This document shows, in pieces, positions 27,185-45,261 of a stretch of 64,000 nt of DNA. Under the pieces are notes generated by a model. That model saw nothing but the letters and a program-made list of their open reading frames with translations. It made no database searches and was not told the DNA's origin. This DNA is from Candidatus Spongiisociaceae bacterium (GTDB lineage Bacteria; Actinomycetota; Acidimicrobiia; Spongiisociales; Spongiisociaceae): contig CBDCOH010000002.1 in assembly GCA_965219685.1 (NCBI GenBank), forward strand, positions 3,936,001 to 4,000,000, read 5' to 3'. Numbering within the stretch: the first letter of the stretch is position 1; each line of letters begins with the position of its first letter. Position numbers and translations under genes: made by a program.

Positions 27185-28557
27185 TCCACACCGCTCTCAG
27201 TGAGCGATAGAACATGTCGCGATGCCCTGATTGTTCCGCCCGTCGAGACCAGGTTCAGTACTGCGATTGCCTTGACAAGTCGGTCTTCCGCTGGGGTGAG
27301 ACCATGGGAATCTCGGATCCGGACGGCTATTTCGGTCCAGCGGCTTGAGTGCTGTGCACCGATGCCGTTTGAAACGAAGTAGTCATAGACTGTCGCGAGG
27401 CCAACGGACGGCAGATGAGCCCCAGCCTGCCACTCGTGGGAGGTTAGGAACGATGAAGCGCTTCTGGAGTCAGGCCCTGCGAGGAACGAGAAGAGCGTCC
27501 TTTCGTGTTGCCCGTAGCGGCTGCACAACTCGGGGAGGACGAGAGCGGACAGAGGATGCAGGGGGTAGCAGGCAGCTATCCCTTGCGGTGTTGCTAGGTC
27601 ACCAACGCCAAGTGACCGTATCGCTTCGACATACCGCCCAGCCCACTGGTCAATCCGTTCTCGCAGCCTTGGGTCCGTGATCTCGAAAACGGTTCGAATG
27701 AGAGCGCGGGTTTGTGCTGGGGACTCAACAAAGGCTATGTCCTCGAACCGACCCTGGACCTTGGCCCACTCCCGACGCTGCGGTATGTCAGCGCCTCCGA
27801 GGTAGTCCTCGAAGGAGAGGTGCTGGAGCGTCAGCACGAAGATAGGAAGGCCAGCGGTGCTTTGGCCGGCCTCTGCCAACTGTTGGAGTAAGTATGGGTC
27901 AGCGTCAACGCCGTCGCGGAACGCTTCGAGGTTCTTACCGAACTCGTCGATGATCAACAGCAGCGGGGACTCTTCAGCAAGGCACCTGGCAATCTCGATG
28001 AGTGCTACGGGTGACGGACCGGACCGACGGGGGTCGTTGTCGGCGACATCTTCCAACGCTCCCCGGAGAGCGTCAGCAGCGGCGAAAGCTCCGCTTGAGG
28101 GGATCTCGCCGAATCTACGGAGAACGGCTGTGTGGAGTGCCCGAAGGATGGTGTGGCTGAGCGGTTCGCGCTCCGCGGTTACCAGTCCGCTAGAGAATCC
28201 TGACCTGTTGGTTTCGTAACGTTGATGGGCTTCACGCACCAGATTCCCCACAGCTGGGGATGTTTTGCCAACCAGGTCCAGCGCTAGGTGGCGGGTATCG
28301 GGAGGAGTGTTCCCGAACGCTGCGTCGAGGAGGAGCGCAAGCGATGACTTCCCTGATCCGTAGGGACCGGTAAGCGACCACGCCCCACCAGCCGGACCAG
28401 AGGCGGCGGCATGAGCGATCCTCTCTACTACGTCGAGGGCACGAGCGGTTACAACATATCCTTCAAGTGGCTCCGCACGCGTCGCGTCGCGCACCAGGTT
28501 GGCTGACCGAGCGAACCGCCCCGTCACAGCAACGCTTCCGGTCAGGGAAGGCATCAT
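27185..28557 (-). pseudogene. sspC: SspC-like P-loop ATPase, C-terminally truncated
   Basis: RFARSANL.RD, LTGPYGSGKSS, LIIDEFGK, EWAKVQGRF, CYPLHP, QHERTLFSFL; runs into TolB sequence after about 457 aa. Confidence 0.75.
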
Positions 28558-29621
28558 CGCCCGCCCATCGCCACGGGGGTACGACCGTACAGTTTGCGCA
28601 TCGCTTCGCTCGGGTTACGTCCGAGGCCCAATTCTTCCAAGAGATCGTCATCCACGGGTTGGTCCCCGTGATGGCCTGCCCGCACAACCGGCGGTTCAGC
28701 TTGGTAGTAATCGTTTAGTACTTCGACAGCGATCCGAGTCGGATCGGCACGCCACGACAGTTGCGAGACTCCGGTCGGTGTGATGAGGTCAACAGTGTCG
28801 GACCTTTCTAAGACAGGTTCCAAAGCCTGCTGAAGCTCGGCTTCTGTGAGCTTGAACACCCTTCCGGGTGCGCCCGATTCGTACGCCAACCGGCTCAGCG
28901 TCACTGTGTTACCACTAGTGCCGGTCCGGGCGACGTAGTCAAGCGCCGTGTAGCAGACAACCGCCGATGGCAGGCTGGGTTTTGGGCCGAGCGTGAATCG
29001 GAACCGTCCGGTAGCTTCTGAAACTTCGATCAGGTTCAGTTCCCGCAGCGGGCAATCCAAGATGTCGTCGATGCTTGTACGGGCCGAGCGTACCGGCGGA
29101 CCATAGGTCCGCAACAAGGCTCGCACGTCCTTCTTCCGAGATGTAGGATGCGGCATCTTCCAAGACGACACAGCCTCGAGGTGGGTTTCGATAGCCAGGT
29201 CGAGGTCAGCATCTTCGAACTCGACTGCGTCGAAGTTGTTGAACGCCAGCCACCAGACCGGCAATCTCGAGGGCGGTGCCATCAACAGCCAGTGCAAGAG
29301 CCACAACGTTCCCGGATCCTCCATGAAGCGATCCCATCCCATCTCCCCGAACAGGGCATGACCCATACGAGTAGGTATGATGCCGGGCGAGCGCCGGTTC
29401 GGTGCCTTCGGGTCCTCGACCAACAACTTGGCCGCGAGACCCCAGAAACGAATCGACCGAACCATGTTCTTGCCCACCCCGATCAGCACAGGCGCTTCAT
29501 GCTGACTGAACACAGCCGGATCCCTCGCCGCCGAAGCGTACGCCTTGCGGAACCACCCGTAACGAGGGTGGAACGTCTCATGACGAGCGAACATAGGCAG
29601 GGCTGCGTCAACAAGCCGCAT
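28554..29621 (-). CDS. sspB: DUF4007 protein (SspB-like nicking endonuclease)
   Basis: FARHETFHPRYGWFRKAY, GVGKNMVRSIRFW, D.FMEDPGTLWLLHW. Confidence 0.85.
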   Translation of the reverse strand: MRLVDAALPMFARHETFHPRYGWFRKAYASAARDPAVFSQHEAPVLIGVGKNMVRSIRFWGLAAKLLVEDPKAPNRRSPGIIPTRMGHALFGEMGWDRFMEDPGTLWLLHWLLMAPPSRLPVWWLAFNNFDAVEFEDADLDLAIETHLEAVSSWKMPHPTSRKKDVRALLRTYGPPVRSARTSIDDILDCPLRELNLIEVSEATGRFRFTLGPKPSLPSAVVCYTALDYVARTGTSGNTVTLSRLAYESGAPGRVFKLTEAELQQALEPVLERSDTVDLITPTGVSQLSWRADPTRIAVEVLNDYYQAEPPVVRAGHHGDQPVDDDLLEELGLGRNPSEAMRKLYGRTPVAMGGR

Positions 29622-30795
29622 CGATGTCCTCTCCGTAGGTCATACGACGAACATACGACACGGCAGTGACAGTCCTCTCAACCGCTGCATCGATGTCGTC
29701 GGGGGTCGTGAACCGGCCCAGGCTATACCTGATCGACTCGAACGCTGCGTCACGGTCGAGGCCCATCGCCACGAGCACCCCGGACGGTTCGATCGAACCA
29801 GAGCTACAAGCACTACCCGCCGACACCGCCACCGGGTCCATATTCACCAGGACAGCATCCGCGTCGGCACCTGCGAATCGTATGTTCGTGGTGTTCGGTA
29901 GTCGGCGTGTGGTGTCCCCGTTCTCATACATCTCTGGAACACGTTGCTGGAGAACACGTACTAGCCGATCTCGAAGCTGGCAGACCCGGCTGGATTCCTC
30001 GACGTGTTCGTCCGAGGCGATACGGGCCGCTGCGCCGAACCCCACCACCCCCGCAACGTTGATCGAACCTGACCGTAGCCCACGCTCGTGACCGCCGCCA
30101 TGGATGAGTGGGCACAAGCGTTCCATGCCACGACGTGTCCCGACCAGCGCACCCACCCCACCCGGACCGCAGATCTTGTGGCCGCTGAACGAAACCAGAT
30201 CCGCTCCGACAACGTCGAGCTCGAAACCGAGACGTCCCACCAACTGCGTTATGTCGCAGTGGAACAAGCCACCATATCGATGGACCTGTTCAGCGATCCC
30301 CGCCACCGGGTTCAACACGCCCGTCTCGCTGTTCGCTGCCACCGCGCATACCAGGAGCACATCCGGCCCCATCATGTCCCCCACCACGTCCGGATCCACG
30401 AAGCCTCCAGCGGTAACAGGAATCATTTCGACTTTCGCCAGGCCCTGTGCAGCCATCCAGCGCGCTGGTTCAAGAACCGACGCGTGTTCAGCCTCCGACA
30501 CCAGCACCCGTGACCGGCTGTCCTCCTTCCCTTCGACAATTCCGCGCAGGACGAGGTTGTTCGCCTCGGTCGCCCCGGCCGTGAACACCACCCGACCAGC
30601 CCTACCACCAACCAAGCCAGCGACCTGATCCCGTGCCTCCCGAACCATGGCAGCCTGGCGCCGCCCAAAACGATGCGCTGACGAGGCATTTCCCAAGCCT
30701 CCAACAAGGAGCGGCATCATCGCGTCGAGGACCCGCGGATCGAGCGGTCCGGATCCGTTGTAGTCGAGATACACCTCGGTCACAATGTGCTCCAC
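29608..30795 (-). CDS. Cysteine desulfurase (IscS/SspA/DndA-like)
   Basis: VYLDYN, SGHK PLP lysine, GGGHERGLRSG, SAGSACSS catalytic Cys; coupled to DUF4007. Confidence 0.93.
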   Translation of the reverse strand: MEHIVTEVYLDYNGSGPLDPRVLDAMMPLLVGGLGNASSAHRFGRRQAAMVREARDQVAGLVGGRAGRVVFTAGATEANNLVLRGIVEGKEDSRSRVLVSEAEHASVLEPARWMAAQGLAKVEMIPVTAGGFVDPDVVGDMMGPDVLLVCAVAANSETGVLNPVAGIAEQVHRYGGLFHCDITQLVGRLGFELDVVGADLVSFSGHKICGPGGVGALVGTRRGMERLCPLIHGGGHERGLRSGSINVAGVVGFGAAARIASDEHVEESSRVCQLRDRLVRVLQQRVPEMYENGDTTRRLPNTTNIRFAGADADAVLVNMDPVAVSAGSACSSGSIEPSGVLVAMGLDRDAAFESIRYSLGRFTTPDDIDAAVERTVTAVSYVRRMTYGEDIDAAC

Positions 30796-31018: not shown

Positions 31019-32203
31019 TCAGAGCCTGTTTGGGTTGGATGACCACGGGCCTATGAACTGGAGGACTCCCTCCAGTTGCTCAACCAGCCTGTCGTAGGTC
31101 TGCATCCTGATCCGCTCCTTCTCGTGAAGCTCGCGGCGTAAGGCCCTCGCCGCGGGTCGGAGCTTCCCCCGCCGCCCGATCAGCACGACCGCTTCAGCCC
31201 GTAGTTCGATATCGGGAAGGCAGATCCCTGTGTCAGGGTCCAAGTCCCGCGCCTGGTGAAGGTTGGCTCCAATCCATCGCCGCCAATCGTTAATCTGTTC
31301 GACGCCCTTACGAGCGTAAGAGTCGAACTGGTTGGTCTTCTTCAGGGTCACACGGGAGTGGGGGGTCTCGAGTTCCACCAATATCCAGCGGATACCGTTC
31401 GAGTCAATATCTGCAAGCAGGAAGTCAGCGACGTAACGGCCGCCGAAGCGGACCTTCGGACGACAGTACCGCGACGGGCCTCGGACGAGTGAGGCCAGCA
31501 GCTGCGGGCGACGCTCGAGCAGCTCCTGGATCGGTTTCTCGCTGTCGGCCTCGTCAAGAACGTGGCGCAGCTCCTCTATGTCCTCCGCGCTTGCTTCTTG
31601 GGTCACGGCGTAGGGCTCCAGGGCTGCCAACTTTGCCCGTGAGACCGTCGAGGTAGCTGACCGCTCCGCCGCGCGGTTCCTGGCCAGTTTCCGCGCTCGA
31701 GCGCTTCTCTCCGATGTGTCGCCGTGTCGGGCAACCATGGTCAGCTGGTCGGGCCACGCCTGCGCGCCGCGCCCGCCGGCGAAGTACACCTTCCCGTCGT
31801 CCCCGATCGAGGACACCACTTCGTACTGGTCGTTGGATGAGTGCCATGACACAACATCGCCCGTCGCCAGACGGAGTTCACTAAGCCGATGCATCCGGTC
31901 CGCTAACAGGAAGAACTGTATCCATGCGTGGGCTTCTCCGTAGCTGTCAACCGTGGGTGTTGCAACAGACGCCGCCTTAGCCAGGTCCACCAGCCACTCG
32001 TGCTGCCCATTGCTGATTCCATTCGGAACAACCCCGAGGCGGATGTCCACAGCCGTACGCACCCGAGCTTCAGCCACCACCCGCGGCAAGGTCCTGGGAA
32101 TCTCGACTCCTACAACTCCCGCAAACGTCCGCAGATCGTCGTCACAGTCCCCAATCATGCGGCGTATCGCCTTTACCGCACCCTCCCAACTGGAGTGGAC
32201 CAT
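31019..32203 (-). CDS. sduA: Shedu-type (DUF4263) nuclease with about 200-aa N-terminal domain
   Basis: SEKPIQELLE...ADFLL...LVELETP...GVEQINDWRRW...LIGRR...QTYDRL; RBS GGGAGG before ATG 32203. Confidence 0.82.
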   Translation of the reverse strand: MVHSSWEGAVKAIRRMIGDCDDDLRTFAGVVGVEIPRTLPRVVAEARVRTAVDIRLGVVPNGISNGQHEWLVDLAKAASVATPTVDSYGEAHAWIQFFLLADRMHRLSELRLATGDVVSWHSSNDQYEVVSSIGDDGKVYFAGGRGAQAWPDQLTMVARHGDTSERSARARKLARNRAAERSATSTVSRAKLAALEPYAVTQEASAEDIEELRHVLDEADSEKPIQELLERRPQLLASLVRGPSRYCRPKVRFGGRYVADFLLADIDSNGIRWILVELETPHSRVTLKKTNQFDSYARKGVEQINDWRRWIGANLHQARDLDPDTGICLPDIELRAEAVVLIGRRGKLRPAARALRRELHEKERIRMQTYDRLVEQLEGVLQFIGPWSSNPNRL

Positions 32204-32238
32204 CAAACCCTCCCGAGTAGAACGACCAGTAAGACTTT

Positions 32239-32634
32239 CTACCGCCGCCGACCACCGAAGGCTGAGATGAGGACGATGATCCCGACCGCCACCAACAGAA
32301 CCCAGGTCAAGACACGTAGTATCTGAATGAGGACGGGAGCCAGTGCGATGACCGTCAAGAACATGCCACCCAGCACCGGAGCGATAGCACCGCCCTCGTA
32401 CCCATGGCTGGCATTCACCCACGCCCGCCACAAGAACGCGCCGGAGAACGCGGCCAAAGCGACCATGAGGACAGCCAGTTGCCAACCCCCGGGAAACGTC
32501 AGCAGGTCACGGGCAAAAACCCAATCCCACCGGTGCTGAGACCACCACACAAGCGACAGCAGCGCGTTGACACCTGAGAGCACTAACCCGACTCGGGCGG
32601 CCAAGTTCCGAGGTGTTGACACATAGAAAGTCAA
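32239..32634 (-). CDS. Small 3-4 TM membrane protein
   Basis: Hydrophobic helices, basic C-terminus; co-oriented just upstream of Shedu. Confidence 0.6.
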   Translation of the reverse strand: MTFYVSTPRNLAARVGLVLSGVNALLSLVWWSQHRWDWVFARDLLTFPGGWQLAVLMVALAAFSGAFLWRAWVNASHGYEGGAIAPVLGGMFLTVIALAPVLIQILRVLTWVLLVAVGIIVLISAFGGRRR

Positions 32635-32912: not shown

Positions 32913-33856
32913 TCAGAAGAGGACAGCCTGTTCCGGGCGCGAGCCTCCCTCGTCCTCGGATAGAGGGCCGTCGAGGATGTTCCGGAGTTGGGATACGGCG
33001 GTGATGGGGGCGGCCCCCATGCCAGCGAGAGCTTCGTTTCCGGGGCCCTCGTCGAGGCCTCGCCAGACGGCCACCTGGCAGTACCGGCCCTTCAATGCTT
33101 CCGTTGCCCCTGACTACGTGCCGCCCGAACCTTTGTCGGCCGCTACCGCTACGGTCACATCTGAGAGGGCGTAGATGAGCTTGTTGCGGCCCATCGCCTT
33201 GCCGACCGAGAACGGGGAGTCCGGTGCGTGAGGTGTACAGATGACTGTCCGGTCGTCGTGAACGGCTCGGCGGACGCCCGGGGATCTCAGGGTCCGGGAG
33301 AGCGAGTGGGCCGGGACGCCGATCACGGTTCTCCCCGCCTCGAAAGCCGCGTTCATGGCCAGTTGATCCACCCTCGCGCTGCACCCGAGATGAGCGGTAC
33401 ATCCAGCGAAGCGGCTTGCCTGCCGAGCGCTGCGGCGACTCGGGCGCCCTCGTCGCTCACGTTGCGGCTCCCCACGACTCCGACACCTCCTTCGTCGAGG
33501 AGTTCCAGGGCCCCGGCGGCGTGGAGTATCGCCGGCGCCTTCCGTCCGAGGTTGGTGCGGAGCTGCTGCGGGTAGGAGTCGCCGAACGGTGTGGGCGTGG
33601 CTATCCCGGACTGGTCGAGCCGCTCCAAGTCGAAGGCCATTGCGGTAGCCCTCGCCAGCAGGCCGGCCACCCGGCCCGTCATGTCCGCTGCCAACCCGGA
33701 GCCCGCTAGATCGTCCTCGGTCATATCGAGAAGACCGGCCGGGTTACCGACTGCATCGACCAGCTTCCAGACCTGTAGAGCCGTGAGCGGTCTGGTTCCG
33801 TCGCTCGCCATCCGGCTCACGAGGAGGATGGCGGCCAGCGCGTCGTCGCTCCTCAT
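32913..33856 (-). pseudogene. DprA/Smf-like protein (PsyrA/RqlI-like), disrupted
   Basis: YP..L...LG..AP, GVVGSR, ISGAARG|VD, AMGRNKLIYAL, GGT*SGA.EAL; frameshift near 33372, TAG at 33114. Confidence 0.85.
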
Positions 33857-34049
33857 CGCACCGACCTCCCCGCCGTACTGGCCAGAGAGCAAAAGGATAC
33901 ACCGGGCCGTATCCGGCCTCCTGGAGCAACCCACCGATCACCGTCATCCTCCAGCGCTAGTCCACGATGTCATCCACCAGCAACACGGTGCCGGCCTCGT
34001 CGGTGAGGCGGCGGAGCAGTACAAGGGCCTCCTGTCCGATCTCATGCAT
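33853..34049 (-). pseudogene. Internally deleted RecQ-PRTase (PsyrT/RqlH-like), copy A
   Basis: MHEIGQEALVLLRRLTDEAGTV (same start as the RecQ at 37351) joined directly to the PRTase tail LLVDDIVD*RW.MTV.G.LL.EAG.GPVYPFAL. Confidence 0.75.
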
Positions 34050-36391: not shown

Positions 36392-36597
36392 CTGTCGAGC
36401 TACGTGTTAACAGCGAACGTCGGTGAGGGCGTTGAGGAGTCTGTCAGTGCCTGAGCACACCGAATAGGATCGGCAGCCCGCACGTCACCGTGGCATTGTG
36501 ACCCACCAACTAACATGTGTCGCAGAGGGCTGACTTGACATCTATCTAACTCGCAGGCGGAGAACACTCTCACGGGGTACGAATCGCCCTTCCGATT

Positions 36598-37351
36598 CAG
36601 GCAGTAGATGACACCCGTGCCTTCGAGGCGGGGGACGACCTGTGCGAGCCAGGCCATGCGCTCTCGCGGTGAAGGCATCGGGAGCACATGGAGCCGCAGG
36701 CCCTCGCGGCCCAGAGGACCTCGAAGCGGCACGAGCCCGGAACCGAGCTGGTCCCGGATGTCCTCCACGACGCGGTCGTTGGCAGCAGTGGCGGTGCAAC
36801 AGAGTACGGGCACGCCCCGGGGCAGCAGATCCAGAACCCTGACGATGCGGCGGTAGTCGGGACGGAAATCGTGCCCCCAGTCGGAGATGCAGTGAGCCTC
36901 GTCCACGACTAGCAGGCCGCTGCGCCGACCTACCTCGGGCAGCACTTCGGTGCGGAACTTCTGGTTGGCGAGCCGTTCGGGGGAGATCAGCAGAAGGTCG
37001 ACCCGCCCGGCTTCGACGCCCTCCTCCACCTCCTCCCATTCGTCTCGGTTGGCGCTGTTTGATGGTGGCGGCTCGCACCCCCATGCCTTCCGCCGCCTCG
37101 ATCTGGTTGCGCATCAGCGCCAGAAGCGGCGAGACCAGCAGCGTCGGCCCCGCCCCCTGATCGCGCAGCAGCCGGGTGGCGATGAAATACACGGCGCTCT
37201 TCCCCCACCCGGTCCGCTGTACGAGAAGTACTCTCTGGCGGTTTTGCACCAGTGCCTGGATCGCCTCCAGCTGGTGCGGACGGAACACGGCGCCGGCCTT
37301 GCCGGTTAGCCGGCCGAGTAGCGCCAGTGCCTCCTGTTCGATCTCATGCAT
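36598..37351 (-). pseudogene. RecQ-like helicase (PsyrT/RqlH-like), copy B, 5' half
   Basis: QRTGWGKS, SPLLALMRNQ, DEAHCISDWGHDFRPDY, TAT, G.IYCL then breaks off; +1 frameshift near 37058. Confidence 0.88.
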
Positions 37352-37957: not shown

Positions 37958-38803
37958 TCACTTCCACTCTCCTGCCGCAGCAGTATCCGGCTCTGTTATG
38001 CTTCTTGTTGTCTTGATCTTGGGATCTACCACGGACTTAATCGCACGATAGAACATCAGGATGACTATGAGTACGATATCGATAAGTGCCACGTTAACGG
38101 GAGACAATCTCGTACCGTATTCTCTGATCCACACAGCCATTATAATTGCGACAATAGTAAAGCCGACAGTTACCCATCTACGCTGGCCGTAGGCTCGCCG
38201 CCCTTGTCGCCGCCTGAAGTACTCTCCCCTTAGTGCTTTCTGGGCGTTGTCATCTGAAGACAGCCTGTAGCTGACTATATCCCAAAGTGTGTAGAGCATG
38301 AAAGACAGGCATACCAGGTAGACTTCTGGCCGAGCATCGGCCTCAGATAAGGACGCCTCTGCTACCCTTATCAACAAGAAATACACGAACACCATTGCCA
38401 CGTCAAGTAAGAACTGTATGAAAGGCTTATTGAAGAACCTCACCCGCAGCTTGGGCAGATTGACACTTGTATAGTATCCAATCGCGCTCGTGACCGTAAG
38501 TGCTGTTGCTACGAATAAGTGCGTCAATGTAACGTAACGGCTACCTAGTACCTCTGTCACCCGGGCTCGACTCAGAATATCACTCTCGTATCGAGAGTCA
38601 GATACCGATGAAGTAGGTAGCTCTCGAAAAATAGGCAGTAGTTGGTCAGCCACTTCGATCGCCAGCTGGCCAATGACAAGGGCGAAGAGAAACCCAGTAA
38701 CCGCCACACCTGTCTGTGTCTTTGCCCTCTCTGGCTGGACACAAAAACAGCGAGAATACCAGATACAAGCATGGTGTTTGATGACACGCATCTGGTGTTT
38801 CAT
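37958..38803 (-). CDS. Multi-pass (about 6 TM) membrane protein of unknown function, low GC
   Basis: 281-aa ORF; ATG 4 nt after the HAD stop. Confidence 0.8.
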   Translation of the reverse strand: MKHQMRVIKHHACIWYSRCFCVQPERAKTQTGVAVTGFLFALVIGQLAIEVADQLLPIFRELPTSSVSDSRYESDILSRARVTEVLGSRYVTLTHLFVATALTVTSAIGYYTSVNLPKLRVRFFNKPFIQFLLDVAMVFVYFLLIRVAEASLSEADARPEVYLVCLSFMLYTLWDIVSYRLSSDDNAQKALRGEYFRRRQGRRAYGQRRWVTVGFTIVAIIMAVWIREYGTRLSPVNVALIDIVLIVILMFYRAIKSVVDPKIKTTRSITEPDTAAAGEWK

Positions 38804-38807
38804 GTTA

Positions 38808-39506
38808 TCACCCTGAGGACGCGAGCCTCTCCAGAGCACAGGGCAGGTGATCCAATGATGTCAGCCGGATAACTCCCTTAGGCACGTTCAGGTGTATACG
38901 GCTCTCATACTGCCAAGTTGGCCTTTCGATCCAGACTGCCTGCAGACCACATTCTATGGCAGGCATGATATCCCACTCTATACTATTACCAACCGAAACG
39001 GCTACTGACGATGACACAGACAGTAAATCGCACATGGCACGAAAGGATGCGGCGGTCTTTCGCTCGACAATTGCTATAGCACGGAAGTGTTCAACAAGTC
39101 CTGACTGGCGAATCCGTTCGTGTTGGATGTTACGGTCGCCTTTCGTGAGCAATCCCAAGTGATAGTTTACATGTAACGCAGACAGCACTTCGTGGACGTG
39201 CGGAATAAGTTCTGCCTTATTTTGGAAAACGGCTATGCTCAAGCGATAAATCCGCTTCTCGGCCTCCGCATCGTAATGAGGCGCGAGCAGACGGAAAGCT
39301 ATTACCGAAGACGTTGGGAATCTCTGCGGGGCAAACCCAAGCTGTGTGACTCGCTCAAGGTCAATCTCTCGCTGGAGTTTTCTCCACAGATGCCCATCGA
39401 GTCCCCGTCGCTCGACTTCACGTTGCGCGTCATCAAGTGCCCTCTCATAGAGAGTCTCTGTTCTCCACAATGTATCGTCGGCATCAAAAATGATGGCACG
39501 TGTCAT
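38808..39506 (-). CDS. HAD-superfamily hydrolase, low GC
   Basis: IFDADDTLW (I), LLTKGD (II), K (III), VGNSIEWDI (IV). Confidence 0.92.
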   Translation of the reverse strand: MTRAIIFDADDTLWRTETLYERALDDAQREVERRGLDGHLWRKLQREIDLERVTQLGFAPQRFPTSSVIAFRLLAPHYDAEAEKRIYRLSIAVFQNKAELIPHVHEVLSALHVNYHLGLLTKGDRNIQHERIRQSGLVEHFRAIAIVERKTAASFRAMCDLLSVSSSVAVSVGNSIEWDIMPAIECGLQAVWIERPTWQYESRIHLNVPKGVIRLTSLDHLPCALERLASSG

Positions 39507-40470: not shown

Positions 40471-40815
40471 TTACCGAGCAGAGAGTTCGAGTTCAACGTA
40501 TCGGGAGAAGTCACGTCCTGAATGAAGGTCTCTAAAGCGACTTATGTCTATTTCAAGATCGATAACATCCTTGTCTGATCGATATCTGAAGGCATCACCT
40601 TCTAGAGCACCTGGCGGGCACTTCAGCCAGATCAAGCTGCCGTCCTCCCTTTTGAGGACAATGTGCAGGCCCCTGCCAACTATCTTCCGAGGTATGTGTA
40701 GCCACCAGACTGGCTTTGATTTGTTGACGTTAGCGAAACGGGTGTTCTGATGGTTCAGCAACGTATGGCGGATATGAGAATTGATGCGTCCTATTGCATC
40801 CTGTTTGTCTGGCAC
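40471..40815 (-). CDS. Hypothetical protein, low GC
   Basis: 114-aa ORF with globular composition in an AT-richer patch. Confidence 0.55.
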   Translation of the reverse strand: MPDKQDAIGRINSHIRHTLLNHQNTRFANVNKSKPVWWLHIPRKIVGRGLHIVLKREDGSLIWLKCPPGALEGDAFRYRSDKDVIDLEIDISRFRDLHSGRDFSRYVELELSAR

Positions 40816-41022
40816 CGTGGGTCGCAGCCTTCCTAGTTCGGTCGTAGCTTGTTAACTCAGAGTACTGCTGGGGGCGGCCGTCTTATGCCGTCGGGCGCCG
40901 AACAGGCACCGTCTTCCTGCCGTGCTGGCCCGAGCAGGAGATACACCGGCCAGCAGGCTCTCCCCGAGCTTCGGGATGCCGTGGGGGCACACCGGCCTGC
41001 CAGCGGTAGCATGGGTGCGGCC

Positions 41023-41349
41023 ATGAGTCCGTCTAGGTCATCCCGTCCGACTGCCCGGTACCGGTCCGTAGCCGTTCCCGACGATGTCGACGCCCCGGGG
41101 GCGGTCAAAGCGAGCGGGAGGGCCGTGTTGCCGTTCCATGTCCGTTGGAGTGGTGATCGGGTGTACGACCTCGACGACGAGGCGGATCGCAAGTCGGTGT
41201 ACAGGCAGGTTTTGTCACATGGCCTTGCCGAGGATGTCCGCCGGTTCATACGGGTTCAGGAGCTTGCCCGTCTGTGGGACCGGATGGTGCTGCCGTCGTA
41301 TGTGAGGGATGTGCGGGGACCATGGCTACGCCGGCGCGGTCTCATATAG
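41023..41349 (+). CDS. Small protein resembling antitoxins of actinobacterial nucleotidyltransferase TA pairs (partner absent)
   Basis: LPFHVRWSG...YDLDD...VY.QVL.HG...DVRRFI...L..LW..MVLP..VR. Confidence 0.65.
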   Translation: MSPSRSSRPTARYRSVAVPDDVDAPGAVKASGRAVLPFHVRWSGDRVYDLDDEADRKSVYRQVLSHGLAEDVRRFIRVQELARLWDRMVLPSYVRDVRGPWLRRRGLI

Positions 41350-41361
41350 AGGAGCGACGCG

Positions 41362-41660
41362 GCGCCCTGGATCACTTGGCTCTCGGCAGGAAGTGGCCTC
41401 CGAAGCTGTCCAAGGCCCTCTGCCCGACCCGCTCACTCAAGACTCTGATGGCTTAGGGGTCCGGGACTCGGGTGATCCACCGCGTCGAGAACCTCTTCGG
41501 CCTAATGCCCAACCACCGTTGCACCATGTGGATGGGGAGGACTTTCCCGAGGTGGCCCGCCTCTACCTGCGGGCGGATGCTCTGTTCGTAATCTCTTTGC
41601 CCAAGCGGCTTTCATGCCTGGGGGCGGGGGGAAGGTGCCTTCGTATCCGGTTGCCGCATG
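41362..41660 (-). pseudogene. Degraded paralog of the 50705-50995 small gene plus first codons of its protease partner
   Basis: Shares CGAAGCTGTCCAAGGCCCT.TGCCCGACCCGCTCACTCAA, GCGTCGAGAACCTCT, CTGCGGGCGGATG and CCCTGGATCAC. Confidence 0.8.
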
Positions 41661-41718
41661 CTTCCCGCTTCCGAGGCGGCTGACGTATCCGTGCTCTCTG
41701 GCCAGGATGCTCCGGGTA

Positions 41719-41735
41719 GTTACAGTCCTGGTAAC
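41719..41735. promoter_or_regulatory. Inverted repeat GTTAC-N7-GTAAC, putative operator
   Basis: Ends 9 nt before ATG 41745. Confidence 0.5.
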
Positions 41736-41744
41736 ATTCTGGGT

Positions 41745-42539
41745 ATGGCAAGCGGCGAGGTCTTTCCGAACGCCCCGTTGGCGCTCGTGGTGGCCGAGGT
41801 ACGTTACCCGCCCGTTTCCGACGGCGCCCTCGCCATGCCGGTCTACCGCCGTATCAGGAACCTGCTCGGCAGCGGCTGGGTGATACACAATGCCACTGAA
41901 CAGACCTTCGAGGCTGGAGTGGACGCGGATGGGCCGCGGGCTTCCTTGAGGTCAGAGAAGTACAGCCGGATCACGTCGAGGCAAAGAACACGGATCATCA
42001 CGGCCAAGCCCTCGAACTTCACAGTCGAGGTCGTGGACTACTCGGGCTTCCCCGACTTTCGCGATCTACTCGTGCGGGCCGGGCAAGCCGTCGAGAACGT
42101 ATTGCATCCCGAAGGGGTCGTTCGGGTCGGGCTCCGGTATATCAACGAGATTTCCGTGCCTGACCAGGTACCCGACTGGGGTGCCTGGCTTCATCCGTCC
42201 CTCATCGCGCCGGAACCGCCTCGCGAGTTGACCCTGACCGAATGGACGGGAACAGCGCGCTATCAAATGGCTTCGGATCGGTTCCTGGTCCTGCGTTACG
42301 GACCGTCGGTCGGACCGGTGGTATCACCAGAGGGTCCGCTGAGGCGTTCCCGTCTGCCCGAGGGACCGATCTTCGTGCTGGATTTCGATAGTTTCTGGCA
42401 ACCCGACGACATCCCGGAGTTCACGAGCGAACGGATAGGCAAGGTTGCCGACCGACTGCACCGCCCGCTGCGAGGTCTGTTCGACCACTTGTGCCAACCG
42501 AACCTGCAAGACGTCTTCAGAAAGGACCTGTTGCTATGA
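41745..42539 (+). CDS. TIGR04255 family protein
   Basis: FPNAPLALVVAEVRY, RVGLRYINEI, FVLDFD. Confidence 0.85.
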   Translation: MASGEVFPNAPLALVVAEVRYPPVSDGALAMPVYRRIRNLLGSGWVIHNATEQTFEAGVDADGPRASLRSEKYSRITSRQRTRIITAKPSNFTVEVVDYSGFPDFRDLLVRAGQAVENVLHPEGVVRVGLRYINEISVPDQVPDWGAWLHPSLIAPEPPRELTLTEWTGTARYQMASDRFLVLRYGPSVGPVVSPEGPLRRSRLPEGPIFVLDFDSFWQPDDIPEFTSERIGKVADRLHRPLRGLFDHLCQPNLQDVFRKDLLL

Positions 42540-43189
42540 CCGTACAGACGGCCCTTTACGACGAGCCTACGGAAGCGACAGCCCTCGCCCCGCTTCGCAT
42601 CGTGGAGAGAACCCGGCCATCTGACGTTGACATCCTGGCTAACGAGGTGGGGGCTCTGCGGTCCGATGTCGGCCTTCTTTCCGAGGATGTCGCACGAGTC
42701 CATGGTGATTCGCTGCGGCTCCAGCTTGACTATCGCGCCGACACCGTCGCCAAGAGGTCGCCTGTGCGCCTGCTCGACGAGCTCGCTCATTGGGGGTTCT
42801 CCTGGACTTCGGTCGCGCGGGTCCTGGGCGTGTCGATCCCTGCTGTTCGGAAATGGCGCCAGGGGAATCCTCTGTCCGGCGAGAACCGGCGGAACCTCGC
42901 CCGGTTGGTGGCCTTCGTGGACCTGCTCCACGAGGACTATCTGATCAGCGATGGCGCATCATGGTTGGACATGCACCTGGCCGAGTCGAGCTTTACCGGA
43001 ATCGACGTTATGGCTGCCGGACACGCCCACGAACTGATGCAGTATGCAGCCGGGCACATCAGCTCTCGGGATCTCTTGGACGTCACCATCCCGACCTGGG
43101 GAGACACTCTGGACGATCGTTTCGAAGTCTATGTGGCGCCTGACGGAGAGCGCGCCATCCGGATGCGGGCTGAGGGCGAGAGGGGGTGA
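42536..43189 (+). CDS. Coiled-coil + XRE-like HTH protein (putative antitoxin/regulator)
   Basis: FSWTSVARVLGVSIPAVRKWRQG; ATGA overlap. Confidence 0.8.
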   Translation: MTVQTALYDEPTEATALAPLRIVERTRPSDVDILANEVGALRSDVGLLSEDVARVHGDSLRLQLDYRADTVAKRSPVRLLDELAHWGFSWTSVARVLGVSIPAVRKWRQGNPLSGENRRNLARLVAFVDLLHEDYLISDGASWLDMHLAESSFTGIDVMAAGHAHELMQYAAGHISSRDLLDVTIPTWGDTLDDRFEVYVAPDGERAIRMRAEGERG

Positions 43190-43860
43190 GCCTCGAGCCG
43201 GCTGCCGAACCGTTCCGGCTCTATACGGCTACCGGCCCCGAAGTCAGCATGTACCGTCCGCTCTTCACCGGAGATATCTTCTCCAATGTCGAGATTCCGG
43301 GCGTGGGCCGCTCGCCCGCCATCGTGATCGGGCATCCCTGCTCGTTCCGAGGCAGGAACGCCCAGCTCGCAGAACGCACACCCGTCGCCTCGGTAGAGCC
43401 TCATCAACCGGTGCCGGCGCAGCAGTGGTCGATGGGATACTTCAACCGGCTGCCCCTCCCGGGTTTGCCGCTGGAAGGATCGTTCCATGTCGCCTGGCTC
43501 GACCGATTCGGTCTGGCCCTCACCAGCGGCCTCACCGCGACAAGCCGCGTGGCGTGTCTTTCGCACGCCGGGATCAACCAGCTGCAACAAAGACTGGTCT
43601 TCCACCAGACCCGGCTTGACATCCCGACCGCGACATTCCACAAGGCCTTCGATCACACCTACGAAGAGGCGGAGCTCCTGGAAGATTGGGCTACGGAGCT
43701 CGGCAGTGCCGACGAATCCACCGTGGCAGCATTCGAGTCCTGGATCCGCGCGGGCGATCCCAACCTGCAATCCCTCTTGAGAGACCCGCAAGCGCGAGCA
43801 CACGTTCGACGCACGATGAGAGAGGAGATCAGCCGGAGGAAAGCGGACACCTGGCGATAA
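43186..43860 (+). CDS. Hypothetical protein with PemK/MazF-like pattern (putative toxin)
   Basis: TGDIF...AIVIGHPC...PVASV...RVACLS...LQQRLV.HQTR; GTGA overlap; fold call is inference. Confidence 0.7.
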   Translation: MSLEPAAEPFRLYTATGPEVSMYRPLFTGDIFSNVEIPGVGRSPAIVIGHPCSFRGRNAQLAERTPVASVEPHQPVPAQQWSMGYFNRLPLPGLPLEGSFHVAWLDRFGLALTSGLTATSRVACLSHAGINQLQQRLVFHQTRLDIPTATFHKAFDHTYEEAELLEDWATELGSADESTVAAFESWIRAGDPNLQSLLRDPQARAHVRRTMREEISRRKADTWR

Positions 43861-44089
43861 CGCAAGCAAGCCCTACTCCCTCCTGGAGGCTTGAAGCCGA
43901 TCGGAAGAGAGCGACCTGTCAGGGGCGCGAACTCTCCTCGTTGTCGGATTGGGGGCTGTGGACGATGTTACGGAGTCGGGAAACGCCGGGCCGGTGAACT
44001 GAGAGGTTCGTTTAGCAGCGTAAAGCTGTCAGACTATATAGCAGTCTAGAAGTGTCAACGGCCTGAGTCGGTTGGTAACTGCTCTGAAC

Positions 44090-44439
44090 GCCGCCGAGAT
44101 CGTCGACCACCACTAGGGAAGAACGCACCATGACTGTGACCCACACACCCGCTGAGGCCTTCCCCCCGGGCGAGTACCTGCGCGACGAGTTGGGAGAACG
44201 GGGATGGACCGTCACCGAGTTCGCCGGAGATCATCGGCCGGCCCGTGGAGGCGCTATCGGAGGTACTTGACGCCGAGAAGGCGGTCACGCCCGATACGGC
44301 GCGGTCGTTCTCCGAAGCCCTAGGCACCAGCGCGGAACTATGGCTCAACCTCCAGCTCTCCTACCGGTTGCACCGGCGCCGCTCGGCTACTGACCGCAGT
44401 GAACCCACCCCAGGTCGCCGGTCGGGCTCGGCTCCGTGA
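44090..44439 (+). pseudogene. higA: HigBA remnant: higB 3' tip plus frameshifted higA
   Basis: AEIVDHH* then AEAFPPGEYLRDEL.ERGWT..EFA|EIIGRP...LGTSAELWLNLQ; +1 shift near 44226. Confidence 0.8.
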
Positions 44440-44532: not shown

Positions 44533-44700
44533 GTGGCTTTCAACCGGCCTCGACAAGTGTCAAGGCCGGTTGGATGTTGCGCGGTTTTGGCCGGTCGAAA
44601 ACTGCGCGGTCTAGTGGGTGGCCTCCTTTCGTTTGCCTCGGAATCGGGAGCTTTGTTCTTTGAGAACGATGACATCAGCGTGGTGGACCAGCCGGTCGAC
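44533..44700. mobile_element. IS21-like abutted end-to-end junction
   Basis: ...TTTCAACCGGCCTCGACA | AG | TGTCAAGGCCGGTTGG... (44555/44558). Confidence 0.65.
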
Positions 44701-44724
44701 AGGGGCTGCGATAGGATCGTTGTG

Positions 44725-45261
44725 ATGACCGATCGGCCTCTAGACATCGGTGGATTCCGGAACTGGGCTCTGGGGAACCTCGTCGACAACGCCACCAGAG
44801 GGGTGTTCGCGGAGTGGCTGGTCGGGAAGGCACTCGGCGTCATCGACGACGGCGACACTCGAGTCGAGTGGGACTCGGTCGATCTGCGGTACGGGGATCT
44901 CAAGATCGAGGTGAAGGCCTCTGGTCTCAGTCAGAGTTGGAGTCCTCGCAACCGGTCGACGCCGAGCTTCGGGATCGCTCCCCGCAAGATGGCTTGGGAC
45001 GCGGCTACCAACGCGTCGGAGAGTTTCGATCCGCCCAGGCGGGTTGCTGACGTGTACGTGTTCTGTCTTCACCATGCGGTGCCGGCGGACAACGAGAACG
45101 TCGCTGATCCGGCTCATTGGACCTTCTGGGTGATCCCGACCGTGAGGCTCAACGACCGGCTCGGCGCCCAGCAGACCGTACGGGTGTCAACGCTCAACAG
45201 CCTCGCGGCGCCGGTGGGTTGGTGCGAACTGCGAGACGTCGTAGACCTTTGCGGCGGGTGA
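44725..45261 (+). CDS. PD-(D/E)XK restriction-endonuclease-like protein
   Basis: NATRGVFAEWLV...WDSVDL...KIEVKAS...ADVYVFC. Confidence 0.72.
   Translation: MTDRPLDIGGFRNWALGNLVDNATRGVFAEWLVGKALGVIDDGDTRVEWDSVDLRYGDLKIEVKASGLSQSWSPRNRSTPSFGIAPRKMAWDAATNASESFDPPRRVADVYVFCLHHAVPADNENVADPAHWTFWVIPTVRLNDRLGAQQTVRVSTLNSLAAPVGWCELRDVVDLCGG

Follow-up and report, generated by a model that had tools for sequence, protein, structure and literature searches.

The region at positions 41745-43860 (+ strand) of the window, by which we mean the whole 64-kb stretch of an Acidimicrobiia genome that was analyzed, contained three intact, overlapping ORFs. The host belongs to the Acidimicrobiia and is no mycobacterium. 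Gene 1 (264 aa, 41745..42539) began at a homologue-backed ATG at 41745, with longer ORF starts also possible at 41658, and ended with the TGA stop at 42537-42539. Gene 2 (217 aa, 42536..43189) extended from ATG 42536 to a stop at 43189, and gene 3 (224 aa, 43186..43860) from GTG 43186 to a stop at 43860. Gene 2 shared 4-nt overlaps with both neighbors, ATGA with gene 1 (42536-42539) and GTGA with gene 3 (43186-43189), and the frames of all three genes were open throughout. The ORF and sequence check confirmed the coupled three-gene locus reported in a preliminary description of this DNA. When positions 41300-44400 were scanned, neither a terminator-like site after gene 3 nor a σ70 consensus promoter was found, and the 64-kb window held no tRNA genes. 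In metatranscriptome run X8, contigs partly covered each of the three genes in a relative with 90-97% identity, which gives a weak hint of cassette expression, DNA carry-over being possible. Small shares of the stretch were also matched in runs X6-X20 from sponge, coral, and marine sources, and no habitat inference was drawn from them.

The three genes recurred together elsewhere, as expected of the operon proposed earlier. All of them were present in 22/27 genome-contig loci; one of the remaining five lacked gene 1, one was truncated by a contig end, and three carried gene 3 fragments. Metagenome loci were selected by gene 1 (80 kept of 371 confirmed), and genes 2 and 3 were both found in 52 of the 55 with at least 1300 nt 3' of gene 1. 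Six of the seven IMG/VR contigs encoding a gene 1 relative had all three genes. The GenBank phage collection gave no match to gene 1 or gene 3, and an IMG/VR pattern scan based on the alignment of gene 3 yielded no confirmed match, the scan being insensitive since gene 3 on six contigs was reached via gene 1. The cassette was distributed over Acidimicrobiia, Thermoleophilia, and Actinomycetes with identity down to ~30%, and on the Rhodococcus pyridinivorans plasmid pNAPH it adjoined a MobF relaxase. None of the four genes flanking it in the window recurred in any other locus. The cassette is a self-contained, horizontally mobile unit of exactly three genes in many Actinomycetota.

The integrity of the genes was compared over 93 locus clusters. 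Gene 3 was intact in 55, divided between two reading frames in 8, and partial in a further 8, whereas gene 2 was intact in 73, split in 1, and partial in 4 through N-terminal divergence alone. The excess of broken gene 3 copies over broken gene 2 copies was significant (Fisher p = 0.014 with splits only; p = 3e-5 with gene 3 partials counted as broken, some of which possibly reflect divergence instead of breakage). Such preferential frameshift breakage of gene 3 is as expected of a toxin. The seeming intactness of gene 1 was biased because the metagenome loci had been chosen by this gene.

In the window, the intact cassette lay beside defense genes, some of them ruined, and this part of the initial reading held. 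SspB/SspA were located at 28554-30795 and Shedu SduA at 31019-32485, followed by a PsyrA remnant (33353-33934; 193 aa, aligned to positions 4-171 of the 398 in the model) and a PsyrT remnant (36400-37029; 209 aa, aligned to positions 109-252 of the 689 in the model). The defense-island setting was not supported at other loci. The flanks of 47 of these (149 ORFs) mostly encoded housekeeping functions such as ABC transporters, MFS, and thiolases, with defense genes scattered, and defense-island enrichment or a general contextual defense role is therefore unsupported. Flank matches to PADLOC mad3, mad8, and AriA were rejected as ABC-transporter ATPase cross-hits (shown for member 1). As the preliminary description had supposed, no already named system was matched: PADLOC-DB v2.0.0 contained no family at E ≤ 1 for any of the three proteins, and no paper covering the operon was found in searches on MazF, Xre, tripartite, or multidomain contexts. 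A literature search by TIGR04255 family names and ids found no paper naming the family of gene 1, and supplementary tables of defense-discovery papers (e.g. PMC13069673) may list such operons.

The product of gene 3 was recognizable by its fold and not by its sequence. It had no Pfam, NCBIfam, or PADLOC match at E ≤ 1 and none in PHROG, and a search of PDB sequences with the profile of its family (812 representatives at E ≤ 1e-3) gave chance-level matches only, with no MazF at E ≤ 10. Its AF2 model (pLDDT 94.3) consisted of a MazF/CcdB/Kid-fold domain (residues ~24-145) and a C-terminal helical domain (~148-223), the helices of which weakly resembled ParS and Xre antitoxin C-domains (Z 5.8-7.1). 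Foldseek ranked MazF first (E 7.3e-5, TMt 0.73-0.79). Residues 24-145 superposed on MazF, Kid, and the M. tuberculosis MazFs with Z 8.8-12.6, the extremes being Kid (Z 8.8) and S. aureus MazF (VIA; Z 12.6, rmsd 2.3 Å, 107/115 residues), and all eleven matches of the fold domain at Z ~8 or more were toxins of toxin-antitoxin systems. Seventeen positions were invariant in 33 sequences (Y13, R24, P25, G29, D30, H50, C52, R55, W81, R121, C124, Q135, R136, T142, R143, E161, and W168). A metal or redox site formed by H50, C52, and C124 is as conceivable as a MazF-type active site. No longer or fused forms of gene 3 were found in the search, which is weak evidence, and a 479-aa gene 2-gene 3 "fusion" (P0328) was discarded as an artifact made up of the N-terminal half of gene 2, an Arg/Pro-rich linker like frameshifted read-through, and then gene 3.

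MazF/PemK toxins are single-domain proteins of ~110 aa with a MazE/Kis-type antitoxin partner. The locus resembles MazEF, Kid-Kis, and PemIK in the fold of its putative toxin and in having a putative antitoxin gene upstream of, and overlapping, the toxin gene. However, gene 3 does not match the Pfam PemK/MazF model, is about twice as long as MazF, carries the additional helical domain at 148-223, and has an invariant motif set of its own, while its partner is a 217-aa HTH protein not of the MazE/Kis type and the cassette includes an obligatory third gene. The claim that gene 3 is a MazF/PemK-like RNase thus stood for the fold, whereas its RNase activity is putative.

In the protein encoded by gene 2, the N-terminus was variable and resembled a coiled coil, residues ~75-115 formed an Xre-type HTH, and the C-terminal domain was conserved. 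Its Pfam matches, HTH_23 (E 5.7e-4) and Xre-like-HTH (E 0.065), were both under curated cut-offs; among the members of its family, HTH_23 was found in 16/20 and HTH_3 in 13/20. The best solved match of the family profile was the antitoxin MbcA (Rv1990c), aligned over the HTH and the helices after it (E 0.018, residues 82-171 versus 16-106 of 115), and a single-sequence search of PDB gave chance-level matches only. PF20432 scored E 0.065 (14 bits versus a cut-off of 25.8) and was detected in 2/20 members, and PF09722 was absent from the five families listed for gene 2 and from the member tally, of whose 35 families 25 were displayed. Atlas pointed to PF09722/PF20432 clusters with scores of 0.87-0.88, as leads only. 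The XRE-type assignment made earlier was therefore borne out as far as the HTH is concerned, but the likeness of gene 2 to MbcA and Xre antitoxins lay under significance thresholds. These resemblances, and those of the C-terminal helices of gene 3, connect the locus to the Xre-RES, MbcTA, and ParST systems. It differs from them in that all scores fell below the family thresholds, gene 2 has an additional N-terminal region of ~65 aa, and no RES-domain toxin was present, neither gene 1 nor gene 3 having a Pfam match at E ≤ 1.

The region 5' to gene 1 had been described as a GTTAC-N7-GTAAC palindrome, and this sequence was indeed present at 41719-41735, 10 nt 5' of the ATG. It occurred as a single copy in the 64-kb window and in 0 of 100 shuffles (a post-hoc test of one exact pattern). 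However, only 2/18 compared upstream regions contained the exact palindrome, and several homologous upstream regions contained unrelated 5+5 inverted repeats; the palindrome was dropped as a candidate operator in favor of direct repeats. The sequence GGTTACAG was located immediately 5' of gene 1 in 16 other loci, 3 of which had it twice at a spacing of 12 nt. Pairs of [GA]GTT sites with 10-13 nt spacing were found in 11/20 upstream regions versus a shuffle mean of 0.8, and TANNNT was found 6-7 nt before the start codon in 13/20. In the window, positions 41719..41737 (+ strand) contained a GTTACAG half-site, which is the left arm of the palindrome. They also contained TGGTAACAT, which resembles an extended -10 box (TGnTAnnnT) and ends 7 nt 5' of the ATG. 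Across these regions, the conserved upstream element consists of GGTTACAG direct repeats, of which the palindrome is merely a local form, and a TANNNT box, and 41719..41737 is a putative operator and promoter for a leaderless mRNA.

Gene 1 was assigned to NCBIfam TIGR04255, as in the preliminary description, with a score of 116.2 bits (family cut-off, 30; E 2.1e-33) over positions 2-249 of the 252-position model, and a whole-genome search gave the same result. It had no Pfam or PADLOC match at E ≤ 1 and none in PHROGs, and sequence and profile searches of PDB returned chance-level matches only. Thirteen residues (R79, E95, Y99, R127, G129, R131, Y132, E135, W145, R184, D213, D215, and W218) were each kept in at least 120/125 sequences. 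Since conserved Arg, Glu, and Asp residues occupied strand positions i and i+2 (E18/R20, R127/R131/E135, and D213/D215), they would lie on one face of a sheet. The suggestion that TIGR04255 is chaperone-like was not supported. No SecB-like chaperone fold was among the matches listed for the AF2 model of gene 1 (pLDDT 93.3), which comprised guanidino kinases, AdoMetDC, TBP, and others; the best were guanidino-kinase domains with marginal Z 8.2-8.3. Similar to TAC and CmdTAC, the cassette has three co-transcribed genes, and its accessory TIGR04255 gene is joined to different downstream gene pairs; SecB-like chaperones likewise combine with different TA pairs. In contrast to these systems, the TIGR04255 protein is encoded by the first gene, is 264 aa long, has conserved charged residues of the sort seen in ligand or active sites, and finds its top folds among kinase, AdoMetDC, and TBP-type sandwiches.

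With somewhat more belief than doubt, we interpret the region as a mobile three-gene operon, undescribed before, that functions in the manner of a three-part module of the type II toxin-antitoxin or abortive-infection kind. Gene 3 would be the effector, combining a MazF/CcdB-fold domain that has its own conserved residues (R24, D30, H50-P-C52, R55, R121, Q135-R136, and T142-R143) with the helical domain, and its target would most likely be RNA, as for MazF and Kid, and less likely gyrase, poisoned as by CcdB. Gene 2, the Xre/MbcA-like HTH protein, would be translated just ahead of gene 3 via translational coupling and would act as putative antitoxin and autorepressor, neutralizing gene 3 through binding and repressing the operon from the GGTTACAG repeats, which overlap the leaderless-type promoter. 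Gene 1 would be the third, obligatory partner, a proposed sensor or modifier that, with its conserved Arg/Glu/Asp-rich β-sheet face, may sense a trigger or control the gene 2-gene 3 pair, and would not be a SecB-type chaperone. The toxicity of gene 3, like any RNase activity or anti-phage role, is an inference. When the complex of genes 1, 2, and 3 was predicted and scored for gene 1 as partner, the ipSAE was 0.01 in both runs against a mark of 0.32, which has no bearing on binding either way.

The contribution of gene 1 could be more direct than this. In an alternative of the type VII kind, which we hold to be unlikely, TIGR04255 would be an NTP-using enzyme with a guanidino-kinase/glutamine-synthetase-like fold that covalently neutralizes or activates the MazF-fold protein, and gene 2 would be a transcriptional regulator only. 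Guanidino-kinase catalytic domains consistently topped the fold matches of gene 1, led by the arginine kinase 4rf8_A (Z 8.3, 189 residues) and the protein arginine kinase McsB (Z 8.0-8.2), and scored ~1.5 Z above AdoMetDC and TBP (Z 6.3-6.7). However, Z ~8 is marginal, a level commonly reached by models without a true match, and the alignments covered 178-190 residues at rmsd 3.8-4.7 Å and 7-8% identity, with no Pfam match of gene 1 to a guanidino-kinase or any other family. The conserved Arg, Glu, and Asp on one sheet face would suit an enzyme, and the five invariant arginines and two invariant cysteines of gene 3 are possible targets of modification. On the other hand, the retention of gene 2 in 52/55 loci and its overlap with gene 3 represent the usual arrangement of an antitoxin gene.

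Other TIGR04255-led cassettes also bear on this alternative. TIGR04255 was found in 20/301 Actinomycetota genomes, 4 of which had the gene 2 and gene 3 partners. In the other cassettes, TIGR04255 came first, the one or two small genes coupled downstream of it were unlike gene 2 and gene 3, and none of their products had a Pfam family. One group of cassettes (L043, L052, and L054) encoded GD...(I/V)LxQxCD proteins, and another (L040, L046, L047, L055, and L056) encoded a pair consisting of a WxxGWxxY protein and an LYR...SSxAF protein. In L054, TIGR04255 was followed directly by the GD...C[DS]-motif protein with the HTH gene absent between them, and a direct relation between gene 1 and the effector therefore fits that cassette better than our main model does; in L043, a 115-aa protein without an HTH match occupied the intervening position. 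The alignment of the gene 3 family with the third genes of L052, L054, and L043 by hhalign was weak (E 0.008-0.29), and their kinship is a lead whose sole basis is the common GD...C motif.

A different alternative leaves the toxin-antitoxin architecture unchanged and makes gene 3 CcdB-like, poisoning a protein target such as gyrase with no RNA cleavage; this too we judge improbable. Gene 3 falls in the CcdB fold class and aligned with the whole of CcdB (VIA; Z 10.6, rmsd 2.9 Å, 95/95 residues), but the MazF proteins scored higher (Z 11.0-12.6) and formed the bulk of the fold-match list. The loop between strands 1 and 2, which we take to be the site of the catalytic Arg in MazF, has only 3 residues in the model of gene 3, and a MazF-type active site is therefore not evident. 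Moreover, the most conserved stretch of gene 3, G129-I-N-x-L-Q-Q-R136 ... T142-R143, is located on the fold's C-terminal helix, presumably the element with which CcdB binds GyrA. Against a CcdB-like action, the five invariant arginines together with His, Asp, and Thr suit a phosphodiester-directed site, and the PDB sequence search found no sequence similarity of gene 3 to CcdB. From CcdAB as a whole the cassette differs further in its different partner, the extra domain, and the third gene. Least probable, and in our view quite doubtful, is the reading that the operon serves regulation or the handling of small molecules, with the MazF-fold protein acting as a harmless factor that binds nucleic acid or a ligand: the unmatched toxin family models, the mostly housekeeping flanks at other loci, and the enzyme-like appearance of gene 1 would agree with it, but the fold matches of gene 3 at Z ~8 or more were exclusively toxins, gene 3 is preferentially broken, and the cassette moves alone between unrelated contexts, including a plasmid and predicted viral contigs, and is therefore like selfish or defensive modules and unlike metabolic operons.

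Beyond the tripartite module that we favor, a broader and rather improbable reading may be drawn from the TIGR04255 cassettes as a group. TIGR04255 could be an unrecognized NTP-dependent enzyme or nucleotide sensor of the guanidino-kinase-like kind, serving as the common switch of polymorphic mobile cassettes whose varied small effectors (the MazF-fold GD...HPC family at this locus, the GD...CD proteins, and the LYR...SSxAF proteins) would be controlled by covalent modification. If true, this would represent a new enzyme-gated class of toxin or defense system.

Together, our results placed TIGR04255, a curated family with no assigned function, at the head of several conserved mobile cassettes, and showed that one of its subfamilies is nearly always accompanied by an HTH protein and a member of a new MazF/CcdB-fold family (812 representative clusters). 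If the cassette were merely a plasmid or prophage addiction module, it would still extend the type II toxin-antitoxin systems by a new variant with three parts. The cassette could offer a route to the function of three unannotated families at once, and to whether an enzyme-like third component can govern a MazF-fold toxin.

Three open reading frames span 41745-43860 on the forward strand of the window, C2:3936001-4000000 of a two-contig, 4.42-Mb assembly. These are gene 1 (41745-42539, +, 264 aa from the homologue-supported ATG), gene 2 (42536-43189, +, 217 aa), and gene 3 (43186-43860, +, 224 aa). All three frames were open, and were joined by an ATGA overlap between genes 1 and 2 and a GTGA overlap between genes 2 and 3, which bore out the intact, coupled operon claimed in the preliminary description. 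By its homologues, the genome belongs to Acidimicrobiia and not to Mycobacterium. The assignment of gene 1 to TIGR04255 was likewise confirmed, as it was a clear member of the family (116.2 bits versus a cut-off of 30). We lean towards the view that this cassette is a mobile tripartite toxin-antitoxin-like unit, in which a MazF/CcdB-fold effector (gene 3) and an Xre/MbcA-like antitoxin-repressor (gene 2) would be joined by TIGR04255 as an obligatory third part.

The three genes were found to be co-conserved. Gene 3 was present in 7 of 41 related genomes, and each of the 6 other full-length copies had gene 2 immediately upstream. A species-wide scan gave 27 loci. In 22 of them the complete cassette was present with its gene order kept; of the remaining five, one lacked gene 1, another ran off the end of its contig, and three were gene 3 fragments. 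Metagenome loci were chosen via gene 1 (80 kept of 371 confirmed), and among the 55 with enough downstream sequence, genes 2 and 3 were found in 52, gene 2 only in two, and neither in one. Of 7 predicted viral (IMG/VR) contigs encoding a relative of gene 1, 6 had the full cassette, and three of these six were near-identical. On the Rhodococcus pyridinivorans plasmid pNAPH it lay beside a MobF relaxase, with the RefSeq labels 'TIGR04255 family protein', 'transcriptional regulator', and 'hypothetical protein'. None of four neighbouring genes from the window recurred at any other locus, and therefore the mobile unit was exactly these three genes. The flanking ORFs of 114 aa (40471-40815, -), 166 aa (40849-41349, +; DpdD match at chance level, E 0.0015), and 242 aa (44533-45261, +) had no Pfam family and were not found beside the cassette elsewhere. 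On a Rhodococcus aetherivorans plasmid (NZ_CP130482.1), a partial relative of gene 3 (44610-45035, matching query residues 80-222) is separated by ~20 kb from a TIGR04255 gene (65236-66021), which suggests a cassette disrupted by insertion or rearrangement. Genome G006 has a C-terminal piece of gene 3 interrupted by in-frame stops (loci L008/L009/L036; C1, about 3898100-3898300), and its intact cassette (L003/L011) is ~7 kb away.

Gene 3 had been said to follow the secondary-structure pattern of MazF/PemK-like RNases. Searches of Pfam, NCBIfam, PADLOC, and PHROGs gave no match for it. The family is nevertheless real, with 109 clusters in the 90% database, every one unnamed or 'hypothetical', and 812 representatives at E <= 1e-3 among 1.84 billion, nearly always 215-250 aa in length. 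In the predicted structure (pLDDT 94.3, 33-sequence alignment), residues 24-145 shared the fold of S. aureus MazF (Z 12.6, rmsd 2.3 A, 107 residues), M. tuberculosis MazFs (Z 9.5-11.5), CcdB (10.6), and Kid (8.8), and Foldseek agreed with a MazF/CcdB-type fold. Unlike these proteins, gene 3 has an additional modeled helical domain (residues 148-223), which best matched the C-terminal parts of the ParS, Xre (RES-Xre), and VPA0769 antitoxins; at Z 5.8-7.1, a weak score for a helical segment, this is at most a hint. The residues invariant in 33 sequences (Y13, R24, P25, G29, D30, H50, C52, R55, W81, R121, C124, Q135, R136, T142, R143, E161, and W168) corresponded to no model that could be matched here, and the first hairpin loop of the model had only three residues. 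The modeled fold thus resembles that of MazF, whereas an active site of the MazF type is not evident.

Gene 2 had been taken for an XRE-type protein. Alone it gave only sub-threshold HTH matches (HTH_23, E 5.7e-4; Xre-like-HTH, E 0.065), but HTH_23 was detected in 16 of 20 family members and HTH_3 in 13 of 20. The best solved relative of the family profile was the antitoxin MbcA (Rv1990c; E 0.018), spanning the HTH and the following helices, and a language-model atlas gave leads to Xre_MbcA_ParS_C clusters (0.87-0.88).

A chaperone-like role had been proposed for TIGR04255. Pfam, PADLOC, and PHROG searches with gene 1 gave no match, and its model (pLDDT 93.3, 44-sequence alignment) was a two-layer sandwich made of a beta-alpha-beta4-alpha unit and, after it, a degenerate copy of that unit. 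In both structural rankings the top places went to guanidino-kinase catalytic domains, with Z 8.3 for arginine kinase (189 residues) and Z 8.0-8.2 for McsB; AdoMetDC and TBP came next (Z 6.3-6.7). Since a Z of ~8 is common for models without a true match, according to the structure tool's own note, we regard the predicted kinase likeness as a lead. R79, E95, Y99, R127, G129, R131, Y132, E135, W145, R184, D213, D215, and W218 were nearly invariant, each occurring in no fewer than 120 of 125 sequences. This is a charged and aromatic set, and several of its residues alternated along strands and therefore would face one side of the sheet. Such a pattern would be typical of a ligand-binding or active site rather than of a passive chaperone, and no chaperone-like fold was among the matches listed.

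TIGR04255 was present in 20 of 301 evenly sampled Actinomycetota genomes, and genes 2 and 3 adjoined it in only four of the 20, including the genome of the window; the others had different small downstream genes, often overlapping. In three loci the downstream protein began with GD[IVF]...(I/V)LxQxCD, recalling the GD...HPCS motif of gene 3 (L054, 2484-3062; L043, 589-1131; L052, 2750-3637). An HTH gene was present in L052, another small gene in L043, and neither in L054. Judged from these motifs, gene 3 and the GD...CD proteins may form a wider effector superfamily. The L054 and L043 proteins also had a Y(R)E..SQ.FA.F..R(I/V)GLP C-terminal motif in common. A second conserved triad (loci L040, L046, L047, L055, and L056) consisted of TIGR04255, a ~165-180-aa WxxGWxxY protein, and a ~120-160-aa LYR...SSxAF protein, the last of which might be a toxin of another kind. 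Further TIGR04255-led arrangements existed, and no Pfam family was found for any of the variant partners. In this Actinomycetota sample, TIGR04255 thus acts as a fixed component to which different partners are joined. An IMG/VR contig of GC 0.44 (L066) carried a distant TIGR04255 gene, then overlapping 169-aa and 141-aa genes and a 408-aa ORF; the family is therefore not confined to Actinomycetota.

Gene decay was compared in 93 clusters, obtained from 116 loci at ~95% identity of the gene 2 region. Gene 2 served as the comparison, being similar in length to gene 3 and having no part in locus choice; the intactness of gene 1 was biased by the way the metagenome loci were found. Gene 3 was intact in 55 clusters; another 8 had it broken across two frames, and a further 8 had a partial or truncated copy. 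Gene 2 was split in one, and its four 'partial' cases were full-length ORFs with a divergent N-terminus. Among these clusters, which are still related to one another, the difference gave a Fisher p of 0.014 for splits alone and 3e-5 with partial gene 3 matches counted as broken, some of which may be divergence. The more frequent splitting of gene 3 would be a sign of toxicity.

Upstream, the GTTAC-N7-GTAAC palindrome reported earlier was present at 41719-41735 and was its sole copy in the window, but the perfect form was kept in only 2 of 18 upstream regions compared (the window and locus L013). Conserved instead was GGTTACAG, which in close relatives sits ~27 nt ahead of the start codon and in L112, L119, and L123, three loci that are more distant, is present twice at a spacing of exactly 12 nt. 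Pairs of [GA]GTT sites spaced 10-13 nt occurred in 11 of 20 upstream regions versus 0.8 expected. In 13 of 20 regions, the window included (TGGTAACAT-N7-ATG), a TANNNT box preceded the start codon by 6-7 nt; in four others (L024, L030, L033, and L035) a GGAGG-type ribosome site took its place. By analogy with known actinobacterial promoter architecture, we infer a putative leaderless-type promoter overlapped by a putative repeat operator. Contigs of one metatranscriptome run partly covered genes 1, 2, and 3 of a relative (90-97% identity) and had the same variants as a DNA run of that sample; they are compatible with transcription of that cassette, and DNA carry-over would fit too.

The 'defence island with ruined neighbours' held for this locus. 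The cassette lies 9-15 kb from an intact SspB (DUF4007) and an SspA/DndA-like cysteine desulfurase (28554-30795, -; PADLOC SspB E 5e-99, desulfurase E 2e-119), part of an Ssp-type phosphorothioation defence system, and from a 488-aa protein with the Shedu SduA C-terminal nuclease domain (31019-32485, -; Pfam SduA_C E 4.8e-12, PADLOC SduA E 1.5e-20). At the same distance are PsyrA (33353-33934, -, 193 aa, positions 4-171 of the 398-position model) and PsyrT (36400-37029, -, 209 aa, positions 109-252 of 689), truncated remnants of a PsyrTA-type pair and the ruined neighbours in question. The description did not extend to 47 other loci, whose flanks (149 ORFs) held mainly transporters and metabolic enzymes, with scattered defence genes (one type I-U Cas set, methyltransferases, HEC-01, SspH, MkoA, DrmD, and HmaA), two integrases, and two transposases. 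A GC trough in the window (38000-39000; 0.496 versus 0.64 for the window), adjoined by a HAD-family hydrolase gene (38808-39506, -), may be an insertion boundary.

A search of PADLOC-DB v2 with all three proteins found nothing resembling the cassette, and TIGR04255 was not named in the main text of any paper in the literature searched. As an effector, gene 3 would act by cutting RNA or by poisoning a protein, and TIGR04255 would sense, modify, or neutralise. The biological role of the cassette may be phage defence or the stabilisation of mobile elements. The cassette is of real experimental value.
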